64,000 nt of DNA, from assembly GCF_054482595.1 (NCBI RefSeq), contig NZ_CM137008.1. One strand, written 5' to 3'. The notes under the pieces were generated by a model. That model did not search any database. It saw nothing but the letters and a program-made list of their open reading frames with translations, and was not told the DNA's origin. Within the stretch, counting starts at the first letter, position 1; every line of letters begins with the position of its first letter. This document shows, piece by piece, positions 46,232-53,410 of this stretch. The translations under genes and the position numbers were made by a program.

Positions 46232-47125
46232 TTAATCCTGACGAAGGACTTTGTGACCATAATCGAGTAACGCATCAGTGACTTTACGCATCATGCGGCT
46301 TTCAGGTGCAAAGCGGTGCCAGTAAAGCATTCGGCGTTGAAATAGCCCAGGCGTTAAGTCAATCAGTTCACCGCTGGCCAGCTCTTTCTCGATTTGCAGG
46401 TGCGGGATCATACAGCAGGTGGTGCCCTGGCGAGCAAGTTGTACGAACGCTTCTGAAGAATTAACGATATGGCAGGGCACGCTGCCTGGAGGCAGATCGA
46501 AGTTTTGCTGCAAAAAGGCCTGGTGCATATCGTCAAGATGGTCAAACGCGACCACTGGCGCTTTCAGTAATGCCGAACGCGTTACGCCGTTAGGGAAATA
46601 TTTTTCGGCAAAGGGTTTTGAGCTGACGAACAGATAGTCGAGCGCACCAAGTTTATCGACAAGACAACTCGGCAGCGCCTGATGTTGAATACTCACCGCG
46701 CCGACCACTTCGCCGCGGCGCAGACGTTCCTGAGTGCGGGTTTCATCTTCTACCTGCAAGTTGAGGCGGATAGGCGAATCAGCCAACACAGGAGCCAGTG
46801 CAGGAAGCAACCACGTCGCCAGACTGTCGGCGTTGACCGCCAGTGAAAGCAGCAGCGGAGTCGAACCGGTTTGTTCATCGCCCAGCCACTCTTCTTCCAG
46901 CAACTCCACCTGGCGCAGCAGTGCCAGCAGTTTTTGACCTTGTTCCGTTGGGCGCGGCGGTACGGTACGCACCAACAGCGGCTGCCCGAACATATTTTCC
47001 AGTTGCTTAATGCGCTGTGAGACGGCTGATTGTGTAATGCACAGCTTTTGTGCCGCGCGCTCAAATCCTCGTTCACGTATTACCGCATCCAGTGCCTGTA
47101 ATGTTCTGTAGTCCGGGCGTTTCAT
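46232..47125 (-). CDS. argP: LysR-family regulator ArgP (IciA)
   Basis: ORF 46232..47314; start at the internal Met ([43 protein letters not shown]...) giving 297 aa. Confidence 0.95.
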
Positions 47126-47195
47126 TGCTGTTGTCTGCTCCTGGTAAATGCTTTTTCCTGCACTATGACATAATTTTGCGTTGGGTACAGAGCAT

Positions 47196-48521
47196 TTAAC
47201 GCATACAAAAGCGGTCGTAATGGAAGTTTTGGCTGGCAATCCCATTTTCATATAACCCTTTGCTGAGCGCTTTGGCAAAACTCTGTGGGCCGCAAAACCA
47301 GAAATGGGTGTCACCTTTATTTGCTATTTTATCAGTAAGATAGTGCGACTGTAGGCGCTCACCTTTATGCGCATCAAGCAGATGCAGTGTGACACTGGCC
47401 TGGGCACAAAGTGAGGTAAGTTTATCAACATACCATGCATCCTCGCTTCGGCTGACGCAATACCAGAGATCCACAGGAACACGGGACGCGCCATGCTGGT
47501 TCAGATACTCAAGCTGGGCGATAAAGGGGGTAATGCCGATGCCTCCAGCTATCCATACCTGGCGGGAGCAAGGGAGAGTAAAATCAAACTTTCCCCATGG
47601 CCCTTCAACGAGAGCGGACTGGCCGATTTTTATCGAGGATGCCAGAGTCGAGGTATAATCCCCTAAATTTTTGATGGCAAAGCGCAACGTGTTCTTCTCT
47701 ATTGCATATGAAGCGATAGTAAAAGGGTGAGACTCTTTACTGTGTGCGAACGTTAAGAATGCAAACTGACCCGGAGAATAGTCGATGGCATGTTCCAGCT
47801 CCAGTATGACTTCGGTAATTTGTCCCGGATGGTTAACAATACTTTTAATGGTGGCCTGATGCTTGTTTTTATTACCGTTTAATTTCAGCAGCGAAATGAA
47901 AGCCACAAAGACGCCTGGGATAGTAATTAAAATTAATAAATACGCAGCAGGAGTTTCCCACCAATATGATTTAAACAGTGCAGTAAATACATGAAAAGCA
48001 ATTGCCAGATAAAAAACGGGGAACAAACGGTGAACAAGATGAAATAAATGATAGGGAACTTTTTTGCTTAGAGACACGAAAACCATCGCTATCATAATAA
48101 ACATTGCACATTCACCCGCTAACAATCCCGCATGAAGCCAATTTTCTTGTACTGGCGTCAGGTTAATATCAACGATTTTACCAGGGTGAGTAAGCCAGCC
48201 AAAGGCGACGAATAACTGGGGTAATTTTTCATCCAGCCAGTGGGCGAAAGCAAAAGCGATGGCGCATATTCCTGCCCACTTATGTAATCGCCATGCTTTA
48301 TCCAGACCGCCCAGCATCTTGTTAAGCCATGATGAACGCAACGATAAGCACATCGTCAGCGTCATCAGACACCACGCAAGGGTTCCCGTAAAAAAGAGTG
48401 TGTTTTGTCGAATGAACCATATTAGCGCGATTGGCTTTTCACGAAAAATATCGCCGGATGACAAAAAAATAATACATGCGACAAAGCAAACCAACGTACC
48501 TGTAAGATTAGCTTTTTTCAT
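47196..48521 (-). CDS. NOX/ferric-reductase-like membrane flavocytochrome (six TM helices plus FAD/NAD(P)H-binding domain)
   Basis: N-terminal hydrophobic half with His pairs H-x13-H ([15 protein letters not shown]) and H-x12-H ([14 protein letters not shown]); C-terminal half with HPFT flavin motif, GGIGITPF nucleotide motif and C-terminal CGP; AT-rich codon usage. Confidence 0.8.
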
Positions 48522-48583
48522 TTTTTTATTTCATTTTGGCAGCGGAGCATAGAACAGTTCCATGCTCCCATTAAATAGAGTGA

Positions 48584-48844
48584 TTATTTATAGAAAATCA
48601 CAGTGGCGTGGATATAATTTTTACCGGAGAAAGAACTGATGTAGTAATTGCTGGCTTGTAACTCTTCCGCTTTCTCTTTGATTTGGCTTTCAACGCCCGC
48701 TGGGTTGCTATTGTGTGTAGACATGCTCACTTTTGATAACTGTTCAAGATTATTGTCCGGTTTGTGTATCTCGGTTGCTGCAAATGCATGTCCTGTGAGA
48801 GTGCAAAGAAATAACGCGGTAAATAAATTTTGCTTAATAGACAT
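48584..48844 (-). CDS. Secreted DUF1471 (YhcN/BhsA-like) small protein
   Basis: 86-aa ORF with signal peptide (MSIKQNLFTALFLCTLTGHAFA) and DUF1471-like C-terminus (SFSGKNYIHATVIFYK); AAGGAG SD 7 nt upstream; 16 nt after the upstream stop. Confidence 0.75.
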   Translation of the reverse strand: MSIKQNLFTALFLCTLTGHAFAATEIHKPDNNLEQLSKVSMSTHNSNPAGVESQIKEKAEELQASNYYISSFSGKNYIHATVIFYK

Positions 48845-48860
48845 AATAACTCCTTTTATA

Positions 48861-49490
48861 TTAAACGTAATGATTAAATACTTGTGTAATAAGATCAGGG
48901 ATTTGCGCTAATGCATTTTGCTCGGCGAGTTCGCGTCCCGGTTGGGTTTTGTCGACACCTTCTGCACGTAAAATATGTGTATTGGTAATGCCCATTAATT
49001 TCAGCGTGGCTTGCAGATAACTTTCCTGATGATCCAGCGCCAGATGTGCTTCATCGCAATAGATACCGCCGCGCGTCGAGACAATAAACGTCGGTTTATC
49101 CTTCAGTAACCCAACGGCGCCTGCAGAGCTAAAACGAAACGTTAAACCAGCCTGACACACCTGATCTATCCAGGTTTTGAGGCCAGATGAAACGCTGTGA
49201 TTAATCATCGGCGCGCCAATAATGAGCACATCGCACGATGCCAGTTCATCAATAGCGGCGTGGATATCATTCACCTCCTGCTGAATTTGTGCGTTCTTGC
49301 ACTCTGCTTTATCGCAAAGCGCCAGAAAGGTTTCTTCACGCAAATGGGGCGGCGGCGTCAGGCCAACGTCGCGATGAATAATTGTGGCTTGAGGAAAGTG
49401 TTGGCAAAGCGCTTCTACCAGCGTCTGGCTTAATTTCCGCGAACTTGAATGCTTAAGCATTGGGCTACTGTCGATATGAAGAATTTTCAT
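48861..49490 (-). CDS. AzoR-family FMN-dependent NADH azoreductase / quinone reductase homolog
   Basis: 209-aa ORF (MKILHIDSSPMLKHSSSRKLSQTLVEAL...) with the AzoR/AcpD flavodoxin-like pattern; first gene of a three-gene minus-strand operon. Confidence 0.8.
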   Translation of the reverse strand: MKILHIDSSPMLKHSSSRKLSQTLVEALCQHFPQATIIHRDVGLTPPPHLREETFLALCDKAECKNAQIQQEVNDIHAAIDELASCDVLIIGAPMINHSVSSGLKTWIDQVCQAGLTFRFSSAGAVGLLKDKPTFIVSTRGGIYCDEAHLALDHQESYLQATLKLMGITNTHILRAEGVDKTQPGRELAEQNALAQIPDLITQVFNHYV

Positions 49491-49497
49491 GGGCTTG

Positions 49498-49518
49498 CTC
49501 TCATTTCTGCGATGAGAG
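49498..49518. promoter_or_regulatory. Perfect 7-bp inverted repeat in the divergent LysR/operon intergenic region
   Basis: CTCTCAT-N7-ATGAGAG, 8 nt upstream of the AzoR-like start codon; candidate LTTR operator or RBS-sequestering hairpin. Confidence 0.4.
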
Positions 49519-49590
49519 AAGTTTAACTGTTGTTTATATGGTGATTAAATAGACATAATTGAACTTCATTGTTGTGAAAATAGAACAATC

Positions 49591-50487
49591 ATGATCGACT
49601 GGAATGATTATTACTACTTTGCCCTGATTGCCGATGAAGGCAGCTACAGCCAGGCGGCGCTGCGTGCGGGCGTGTCGAAATCGGTATTAAGCCGACGAAT
49701 GGCTGCACTGGAGGAGCGCCTTGGCGTACGGCTTATTCAGCGAACTACGCGGCGTCTGGCCCTGACGGCGGCAGGCGAACAGTTTGCTGTCGAATGTCGG
49801 GCGCTGATGGCGCAGGAGGAACGGGCTAGAGCGGTGGTGATGGCCGCCCAGGAAAGCCCACAGGGAATGCTGCGCGTCAGCGCGCCGGTATTTATGGCTG
49901 AAACATGGTTTGGTGAGTTTGTCAGTGAGTTTATCGCCCGTTGGCCCCTGGCGAAGGTGCAACTGCTGGCAATTAATCGCCCGGTGGATATGGTCGCTGA
50001 AGGCATTGATATTGCGCTGGTTACGGCTTCCGGCGCGCTTGCTGACTCGACGCTGCATTATAAAAAATTACATACCCAGGCTGATATTTTAGTTGCCAGT
50101 TCTCAGTGGCTGGCCCGCCATCCGCAGGTGAAAGCTATTGAAGATCTTAACCACGTCGACGGGATCCTTCGGCTGGCGAACAATGGCGGGAGCCAGTGGC
50201 AATTAATTAATGGCGAACAGGAGATTACGCTGCAGCCTGAGGCGCGTTTGCAGTCAAATAACCTTCGCGTCATGCTGCAAGCAGTACTTGGTGGGAATGG
50301 CGTGGCGTTATTGCCTCAATTTGCCTGTAAACAGGGGCTTGCGAACGGTGAACTGGTGCGCCTGTTTGCACCGTGGAGCGGCATACCCAGACCGTTGTAT
50401 GCTTTATTTGCGGGGCGAAAGGGGATGCCTGCCATTGCGCGATATTTTATGGATGAGTTAACCACGCGGCTTGCCAACGGGGTCTGA
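49591..50487 (+). CDS. LysR-family transcriptional regulator, divergent from the redox operon
   Basis: 298-aa ORF with N-terminal HTH ([36 protein letters not shown]) and LTTR effector domain. Confidence 0.85.
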
Positions 50488-50542
50488 ATCGCTTTTTTTG
50501 TATATAATGCGTGTGAAATTTCATACCACAGGCGAAACGATC

Positions 50543-51202
50543 ATGACGCAGGATGAATTGAAAAAAGCAGTAGGATGGGCGGCACTTCAGTATGTTCAGC
50601 CCGGCACCATTGTTGGTGTAGGTACAGGTTCCACCGCCGCACACTTTATTGACGCGCTCGGTACAATGAAAGGCCAGATTGAAGGGGCCGTTTCCAGTTC
50701 AGATGCTTCCACTGAAAAACTGAAAAGCCTCGGCATTCACGTTTTTGATCTCAACGAAGTCGACAGCCTTGGCATCTACGTTGATGGCGCAGATGAAATC
50801 AACGGCCACATGCAAATGATCAAAGGCGGCGGCGCGGCGCTGACCCGTGAAAAAATCATTGCTTCGGTTGCAGAAAAATTTATCTGTATTGCAGACGCTT
50901 CCAAGCAGGTTGATATTCTGGGTAAATTCCCGCTGCCAGTAGAAGTTATCCCGATGGCACGTAGTGCAGTGGCGCGCCAGCTGGTGAAACTGGGCGGTCG
51001 TCCGGAATACCGTCAGGGCGTGGTGACCGATAATGGCAACGTGATCCTCGACGTCCACGGCATGGAAATCCTTGACCCGATAGCGATGGAAAACGCCATA
51101 AATGCGATTCCTGGCGTGGTGACTGTTGGCTTGTTTGCTAACCGTGGCGCGGACGTTGCGCTGATTGGCACACCTGACGGTGTCAAAACCATTGTGAAAT
51201 GA
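50543..51202 (+). CDS. rpiA: Ribose-5-phosphate isomerase A
   Basis: ORF 50471..51202; start at [39 protein letters not shown]... giving 219 aa. Confidence 0.97.
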
Positions 51203-52879: not shown

Positions 52880-53018
52880 AAAGCCCTCACCGAAGCGAGG
52901 GCTTGAAGGAGAAGGGTTATGATGCGACTTGTCATCATACTGATTGTACTGTTACTCATAAGTTTCCCAGCTTATTAACAGTCAGTCTCAGGGGAGGAGT
53001 AATCCTCCCTTACCCTTA
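52880..53018 (-). ncRNA. Sib-type antisense sRNA (antitoxin), copy 1; boundaries approximate
   Basis: Minus-strand -35 TTGACA (53053-53048), 17-bp spacer, -10 TAATTT (53030-53025); transcript would run antisense across the ibs ORF; 3' end estimated from the usual Sib length. Confidence 0.45.
52919..52978 (+). CDS. Ibs-family type I toxin, 19 aa (variant copy, Pro17)
   Basis: Read by hand: ATGATGCGACTTGTCATCATACTGATTGTACTGTTACTCATAAGTTTCCCAGCTTATTAA = MMRLVIILIVLLLISFPAY*; SD GAAGGAG upstream; below the ORF-track size cutoff. Confidence 0.75.
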   Translation: MMRLVIILIVLLLISFPAY

Positions 53019-53271: not shown

Positions 53272-53410
53272 AAAGCCCTCACCGAAGCGAGGGCTTGAAG
53301 GAGAAGGGTTATGATGCGACTTGTCATCATACTGATTGTACTGTTACTCATAAGTTTCAGCGCTTATTAACAGTCAGTCACAGGGGAGGAGCAATCCTCC
53401 CTTACCCTTA
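53272..53410 (-). ncRNA. sibC: SibC-type antisense sRNA (antitoxin), copy 2; boundaries approximate
   Basis: Same promoter-like elements as copy 1, shifted by 392 bp (-35 at 53445-53440, -10 at 53422-53417); serA-ygfA intergenic position corresponds to K-12 sibC/rygC. Confidence 0.45.
53311..53370 (+). CDS. ibsC: Ibs-family type I toxin, 19 aa (IbsC-like, Ser17)
   Basis: Read by hand: MMRLVIILIVLLLISFSAY*; same SD and context as copy 1; matches my recollection of K-12 IbsC. Confidence 0.75.
   Translation: MMRLVIILIVLLLISFSAY

Follow-up and report, generated by a model that had tools for sequence, protein, structure and literature searches.

Four intact open reading frames (ORFs), together referred to as the module, occupy the interval between argP (46232-47125, minus strand) and rpiA (50543-51202, plus strand) in the 64-kb stretch of Escherichia coli DNA that was analysed here and that is called the window in the following. 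It matches E. coli O157:H16 strain Santai (NZ_CP007592) with 100% identity. ORF calling places the module at 47196-50487, the ORF coordinates agree with the RefSeq annotation of NZ_CP007592, and the names given there are: a ferredoxin reductase family protein, a DUF1471 protein, an FMN-dependent NADH-azoreductase and a LysR regulator. A first-pass annotation, made from the sequence alone, had described four intact genes at exactly these positions, with a tightly packed minus-strand operon divergent from the LysR gene. The strong Shine-Dalgarno sequence that it reported in the gap separating operon genes 1 and 2 is indeed there, AAGGAG lying 7 nucleotides (nt) ahead of the ATG. The second operon spacer, between the genes for the DUF1471 protein and the flavocytochrome, measures 62 nt (48522-48583) and contains the reported hairpin. 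The AT-rich composition that had been ascribed to the module applies to the three operon genes (G+C 0.39-0.47, compared to 0.515 for the whole window) and not to the LysR gene (0.557). In agreement with the first-pass annotation, no mobility genes were found beside the module within the window; the neighbours are scpA, argP, rpiA and serA. The individual features are listed in Table 1.

Table 1. Genes and sequence elements of the module, with positions in the window and the basis of each assignment.
Feature	Position	Strand	Basis
Predicted NOX-type flavocytochrome b, FRD-FNR fusion, 441 aa	47196-48521	-	Pfam, motifs, PDB match, AF2 (AlphaFold2) model
Predicted RNA hairpin, 11-bp stem, no U tract, in the DUF1471-flavocytochrome spacer	48544-48568	-	folding energy versus shuffles
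Predicted small secreted DUF1471 (YdgH/BhsA/McbA-like) protein, 86 aa	48584-48844	-	PF07338 and signal peptide
16-nt spacer with Shine-Dalgarno AAGGAG	48845-48860	-	read from sequence
Predicted FMN-dependent NAD(P)H azo/quinone reductase, a paralogue in the AzoR family; operon gene 1, 209 aa	48861-49490	-	Flavodoxin_2, PDB matches
100-nt divergent control region, two dyads	49491-49590	.	sequence, comparison with Salmonella
Predicted LysR-type transcriptional regulator (LTTR), 298 aa	49591-50487	+	NCBIfam LTTR, PDB match, K-12 identity

The regulator, the FMN reductase, the secreted DUF1471 protein and the NOX-type flavocytochrome are one conserved unit that was deleted in K-12. Module carriers (at least 80% of the region) make up 232 of the 5426 complete E. 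coli genomes. K-12 has at this site only a LysR C-terminal ORF of 231 bp, the short LysR-type remnant yqfE that the first-pass annotation had named. This yqfE corresponds to the last 64 codons of the LysR gene, and positions 50295-50589 of the window are 100% identical to K-12. At the other end, K-12 keeps the argP-proximal sequence to about 47181, which is followed by a 65-nt filler and by a piece of roughly 60 nt from the 3' end of the AzoR-like gene (48887/48891-48948 in the window, 90-91% identical). The relics stand in the correct order: argP side, filler, AzoR piece and LysR 3' end. The AzoR relic was found in about 3660 of the complete E. coli genomes, and O157:H7 and a urinary isolate show the same two junctions together with further small deletions. 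The filler (2580-2644 of the K-12 relic L002, between window positions 47181 and 48891) has no match in the intact alleles or the Salmonella copies; it is common to K-12, O157:H7 and strain E09 and therefore should date from the original deletion event. The first-pass annotation had held deletion in K-12 to be as likely as insertion in the module-bearing strains. The two are not evenly balanced: K-12-type genomes still contain pieces of two of the module genes, correctly ordered, and this marks them as deletion derivatives. On the comparison of these alleles, K-12-type genomes derive from a module-bearing ancestor via one old, two-part deletion followed by erosion, and yqfE is best read as a relic of that event. 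The relic in E. coli E09 (L092, about 605-723) carries an insertion of roughly 120 nt between the LysR relic and rpiA, with an exact ERIC2 primer sequence and a near match to ERIC1R, which we take to be an ERIC/IRU repeat.

The same four genes were recovered at the same rpiA-argP site, with 89% identity, on a contig of Salmonella enterica subsp. enterica (L005, 4048-7338), the exact proteins of which have database entries from serovars including Westminster and Abony. Between this contig and Santai, synonymous divergence (dS) is 0.21-0.46 for the module genes and 1.2-1.5 for the flanking argP and rpiA, and nucleotide identity is about 90-97% within the module and about 76-88% outside it. The module is thus far less diverged than its flanks, which argues for exchange between E. 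coli and Salmonella after the genera had split, apparently through recombination at the homologous site and without visible mobility genes. A second Salmonella version (L003, 3271-7320; L004, 141-4003) shows only 51% identity for the flavocytochrome, with gene order and orientation unchanged; it adjoins tRNA-Phe and an integrase fragment and has the look of an island associated with a tRNA gene. Whichever version of the module is taken, its LysR protein has the same closest NCBIfam model. Taken over these alleles, the module is to be regarded as laterally mobile among the enterobacteria. A search of the PLSDB plasmids yielded no close copy of the module, only a paralogue of 35-40%. A stand-alone FRD-FNR paralogue (38-39% identical) occurs in both E. 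coli and Salmonella, where it is plasmid-borne or flanked by the insertion sequence IS66 (L006, 5001-6308) and has no AzoR, DUF1471 or LysR neighbours. Among the E. coli alleles the module genes have diverged about as far as might be read from the flanking argP (dS 0.13-0.17 and 0.12-0.14, respectively), and the ratio of non-synonymous to synonymous divergence (dN/dS) is 0.04-0.24 over all four genes, which shows intact copies to be under purifying selection.

The 441-aa protein was described in the first-pass annotation as a NOX-like membrane flavocytochrome, a description that is backed by its motifs, its sequence matches and its predicted fold. The Pfam search recovered Ferric_reduct (2.5e-14), FAD_binding_8 (9e-8) and NAD_binding_1 (3e-7). 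Of the domains named beforehand for the operon proteins, Ferric_reduct, FAD_binding_8, Flavodoxin_2 and DUF1471 were all found, and NAD_binding_6 was not significant (E 1.1), its place being taken by NAD_binding_1. The bacterial NOX-like family has been defined by motif filters (Hajjar et al. 2017; PMC5676040): two H-x12-14-H haem-ligand pairs on separate transmembrane (TM) helices with 20 residues or more between them, a membrane part of three or more TM helices (as a rule six) ahead of a C-terminal dehydrogenase domain, and characteristic FAD and NAD(P)H motifs. The putative haem ligands of the module protein form the pairs H80-x13-H94 and H164-x12-H177, and the four histidines are invariant among homologues down to 35% identity. 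The FAD motif H[PSA]F[TS][LIMV] is present as HPFTI at residue 265, the NAD(P)H motif as GIGITP at residue 327, and a CGP motif occupies residues 410-412; in a set of 11 homologues H265, P266 and the CGP residues are invariant, as are nearly all residues of G326-F333. In the AF2 model (pLDDT 81) six long N-terminal helices precede a beta-barrel and a Rossmann-like domain, and the haem histidines fall in the modelled helices 73-106 and 157-184. The closest PDB entry by sequence is the NOX of Streptococcus pneumoniae (SpNOX; 8qq7, E 6e-26), and the top fold matches of the model are again SpNOX (8qt6/8qta, TM-score 0.72-0.80), followed by NOX5, DUOX1 and NOX2. Judged by its sequence, the flavocytochrome passes every motif filter of Hajjar et al. 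(PMC5676040). Sequence and model together give good support to its assignment as a NOX-type flavocytochrome b with two predicted bis-His haem sites and a cytoplasmic FAD/NAD(P)H domain. Hajjar et al. also cloned an E. coli "EcNOX", of which the haem signal was weaker than that of SpNOX and PaNOX and which was not taken further (PMC5676040). This EcNOX (UniProt L2VL28, strain KTE10) may be either the module flavocytochrome or the plasmid- or IS66-borne, 38%-identical paralogue.

The product of the first operon gene matches Flavodoxin_2 (PF02525; 5e-41) over residues 1-192, and its PDB matches are: Pseudomonas putida AzoR (4c0w, 5e-30), Pseudomonas aeruginosa AzoR1 (2v9c, 6.5e-24) and E. coli AzoR (1v4b, 9e-21). 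Its scores remain under the curated NCBIfam cut-offs for AzoR (71.7 versus 188 bits for NF010075 and 52.5 versus 143 for NF002370), which points to a diverged paralogue rather than to the housekeeping AzoR. The 86-aa protein matches the YdgH_BhsA-like/DUF1471 domain (PF07338; 2.5e-9) over residues 34-86, behind an N-terminal signal peptide MSIKQNLFTALFLCTLTGHAFA/A (…GHAFA/ATE…) that was read from the sequence. It scores under the curated NCBIfam cut-offs for BhsA (52.3 versus 90), RclB (27.5 versus 100), YhcN, YbiJ and McbA, and by these scores it is not equivalent to any of the five. The LysR protein gives full-length NCBIfam LTTR alignments, the best with PRK14997 (171 bits, below cut-off) and with YafC also near, and its best PDB match is Vibrio cholerae AphB (3szp, 5e-36), aligned over residues 5-288; the database entries of the Salmonella orthologues list PF00126 and PF03466. 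With an N-terminal HTH, a LysR substrate-binding domain, a length near 300 aa and a gene divergent from the operon, the regulator conforms to the LTTR plan. An AphB-type redox-sensing cysteine was considered for the LysR protein and dropped: Cys244 aligns with a residue of AphB that is not a cysteine.

The control region holds two dyads. The first, CTCTCAT-N7-ATGAGAG at 49498-49518, is not conserved in the 51%-identical Salmonella module, whereas the second, ATTGTT-N10-AACAAT at 49568-49589, is conserved there together with an adjacent block. The hairpin in the second operon spacer was folded with a free energy (dG) of -16.8 kcal/mol and a z of -4.0, and none of 200 shuffles folded equally well, which bears out the hairpin of the first-pass annotation. 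The lack of a U tract sets it apart from a canonical terminator, and a terminator consensus scan gave nothing above shuffles. Every E. coli allele retains it, as does the Salmonella copy at the rpiA locus. In the 51%-identical Salmonella copy the corresponding position is taken by an unrelated sequence that likewise folds into a stable hairpin (dG -21, z -3.7), and this preservation of position in spite of unrelated sequence argues for a conserved RNA-level role of the hairpin before the flavocytochrome gene.

The gene neighbourhoods in the wider family were collected for 80 loci of GTDB species representatives with 35-43% identity to the flavocytochrome (L009-L088). A dihaem cytochrome c (DHC; PF09626) gene lies immediately upstream on the same strand in 38 of these loci (e.g. 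L015, 3814-6317), a DUF1924 gene is additionally present in 25, and a divergent OmpR-type response regulator is often found. The DHC clusters of beta- and gamma-proteobacteria also contain PepSY-like ORFs. Two metagenomic relatives (42-44% identical to the window protein and 74% to each other) have a LysR gene divergent from Flavodoxin_2 and FRD genes, and behind this core, on the same strand, comes a tripartite efflux pump of the resistance-nodulation-division (RND) type (L008, 3174-11332; L094, 2206-9353). A reductase that adjoins an efflux pump fits a xenobiotic response. In other closer relatives the LysR gene diverges from the FRD gene alone. These neighbourhoods indicate that the LysR-flavocytochrome pair is the oldest linkage, that the AzoR paralogue joined within the clade and that DUF1471 was added in enterobacteria. 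A gene for a small secreted protein just upstream of the flavocytochrome is a recurrent feature across the family.

Every protein of the module belongs to a known family and all four genes are already generically annotated in RefSeq. Searches of the literature for the four-gene operon (DUF1471, ferric reductase, azoreductase and LysR) and for yqfE gave nothing specific, and no specific paper was found on the DHC/DUF1924-FRD cluster. With the DHC/DUF1924-FRD-FNR clusters the module shares a homologous flavocytochrome (35-39%) and a small secreted protein gene directly upstream on the same strand; the clusters differ in that their secreted proteins are c-type cytochromes with redox cofactors, their regulator is of the OmpR type, and AzoR and DUF1471 are absent. 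The layout of the module also resembles that of rclR-rclABC, the reactive-chlorine resistance locus of E. coli, in which a divergent regulator accompanies a cytoplasmic flavoenzyme, RclB (a DUF1471 protein of the periplasm) and a protein of the inner membrane. The regulator there is AraC-type instead of LTTR, the flavoenzyme is a disulfide-reductase homologue instead of an AzoR-type protein, and it is the membrane protein of the module that is NOX-type; none of the module components was recognised as a member of rclR-rclABC. In E. coli K-12 the LTTR YhaJ, which responds to hydroquinone and metabolites of dinitrotoluene (DNT), induces the DUF1471 gene ybiJ and redox genes (PMC5031710). The module is similar in that an LTTR stands beside DUF1471 and redox genes, YhaJ responding to quinone-like aromatics. 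It is different in that the module regulator is PRK14997/YafC-like, and in that the YhaJ targets are scattered rather than united in one operon and include no NOX-type protein.

MsrQ and SpNOX also belong to the closest known systems. MsrQ (YedZ) of the E. coli MsrQ/Fre/MsrP system is likewise a haem b membrane protein with a ferric reductase domain that directs electrons to the periplasm and has a cytoplasmic flavin reductase as its separate partner (PMC5676040, PMC11564096). Unlike in MsrQ/Fre, the dehydrogenase domain of the module protein is fused to the membrane domain and the separate reductase is AzoR-type and not Fre-type; neither the E. coli nor the Salmonella module contains or adjoins a gene for an MsrP-like molybdoenzyme. 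SpNOX shares the six TM helices, the two bis-His haem b sites (on TM3 and TM5), HPFT, GIGITP and the absence of regulatory domains. The module protein departs from it in sequence (about 21% identity over the fold alignment), in its Gram-negative host and in its operon with an AzoR paralogue, DUF1471 and a divergent LysR gene. SpNOX reduces cytochrome c directly, and its authors suggest a possible protein acceptor; they leave room for O2 not being the acceptor that SpNOX homologs use physiologically and call for further functional assays (PMC11564096).

We propose that the module serves in electrophile or oxidant defence, as an accessory and laterally mobile operon for redox stress that is controlled by the divergently encoded LysR-type protein, a reading that we hold at about even chances and that is drawn from gene content and comparison. 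The signal sensed by the LysR protein would be a small molecule, an electrophile or an oxidant, with a quinone-like aromatic as the most plausible candidate, and the protein would then activate the divergent operon. The YhaJ-ybiJ hydroquinone precedent and the efflux-pump neighbours of the metagenomic relatives support the proposal. In the cytoplasm the AzoR paralogue would reduce soluble quinones or azo compounds by two electrons. The flavocytochrome would take hydride from NAD(P)H to FAD and pass single electrons via its two b haems across the inner membrane, with a quinone, a metal, O2 or a protein as candidate periplasmic acceptor. Such an export of electrons to periplasmic partners fits the wider family, in which distant loci pair FRD with a dihaem cytochrome c and SpNOX reduces cytochrome c. 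The DUF1471 protein could be a periplasmic stress protein or a partner of the flavocytochrome, and the hairpin probably lowers the expression of the flavocytochrome relative to the two upstream genes. That the operon works as a LysR-controlled transmembrane electron-transfer module for periplasmic reduction or superoxide generation, as the first-pass annotation suggested, is something we infer from its domain content and conserved gene order.

Several observations weigh against this proposal. None of the 80 wider-family loci has an AzoR or DUF1471 neighbour, which makes the pairing clade-specific. The module was lost by about 95% of E. coli, and the flavocytochrome gene is disrupted by the insertion sequence IS1, by a split ORF or frameshift, or by truncation in about 16 of 60 genomes (about 27%; evenly spaced among the 247 genomes with any flavocytochrome sequence). 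Loss in most E. coli combined with broken copies implies that the module is dispensable in most niches. In the control region neither dyad is a symmetric or canonical T-N11-A LTTR box, and the promoter consensus scan gave nothing above shuffles. The inducer and the acceptor in the proposed mechanism are guesses, and a redox-partner role of the DUF1471 protein is unsupported, since no cofactor is known for DUF1471 proteins and the module protein lacks cysteine in its mature part. As to the broken copies, which show decay to be still in progress among carriers, the IS1-split flavocytochrome gene is found in many human isolates (e.g. NZ_CP015834, strain MS6198), and other carriers have frameshifted copies or copies truncated at nt 703.

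Were the flavocytochrome a true bacterial NOX and dedicated superoxide-generating NAD(P)H oxidase, the operon would supply periplasmic or extracellular superoxide for signalling or competition, in keeping with the complete motifs and fold of the NOX catalytic core and with the acceptance of O2 by SpNOX in vitro (PMC5676040, PMC11564096). However, SpNOX reduces cytochrome c faster than O2, and O2 may not be its physiological acceptor (PMC11564096), a doubt of the authors for which superoxide generation should not be assumed; moreover, distant homologues are co-operonic with periplasmic c-type cytochromes, and expression from one operon together with a quinone reductase that detoxifies and a DUF1471 protein of the stress type would fit defence better than the deliberate production of reactive oxygen species. 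We consider this oxidase role unlikely. An equally small probability is given to a metal reductase acting on ferric or cupric ions in iron acquisition or copper homeostasis. The Ferric_reduct domain, the name "iron reductase" that several sources give to the Salmonella orthologues, and the listing of the DUF1471 relative BhsA in NCBIfam as a copper/multiple-stress protein would all agree with it. Yet the control region has no Fur box above chance (best match 12/19, a score of at least 12 being reached by 34% of shuffles), genes for iron or copper transport are missing from the immediate neighbourhood, the regulator belongs to the LTTRs and is not Fur or CueR, and SpNOX's activity as a ferric reductase is very low and was considered unlikely to matter physiologically (PMC11564096).

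The module could also be a decaying remnant, its four ORFs merely not yet hit and without current function in the strain, as the old deletion in most E. coli and the IS1 insertions, frameshifts and truncations in the sampled carriers might lead one to think. The low dN/dS of all four genes between alleles with dS 0.13-0.17, the intact catalytic motifs, and the transfer of the unit as a whole and its retention in Salmonella speak against decay, which we regard as very improbable, the least probable of the explanations considered here. An anti-phage defence role was tried as well and rejected, none of the four proteins having a PADLOC match. Somewhat above decay, though still a long shot, comes the possibility that the DUF1471 protein is the physiological periplasmic acceptor, adaptor or gate of the NOX-type flavocytochrome. 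It is raised by analogy, because DUF1471 holds the operon slot that dihaem cytochromes c occupy in the beta-proteobacterial homologues. If true, a bacterial NOX homologue would for the first time have a physiological acceptor pathway, and the DUF1471 stress-protein family would gain its first molecular function, both in the genetically tractable hosts E. coli and Salmonella.

Outside the module proper, only 70 nt (47126-47195) separate the flavocytochrome stop from the argP start codon, and no terminator-like site was found within them. The argP upstream sequence beyond about -56 from the ATG differs between module-bearing and K-12-type strains, so that the promoter context of argP, or read-through into it, may differ by strain type. 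Downstream of serA the RefSeq annotation gives two tandem ibsC-type type I toxin genes (52919-52978 and 53311-53370).

With the redox-stress operon proposed here, a bacterial NOX homologue in E. coli and Salmonella is put beside a secreted protein, a reductase of the quinone type and a regulator dedicated to the operon. It thereby offers a tractable route to the physiological role and the electron acceptor of the bacterial NOX homologues, for which K-12 is a natural null.

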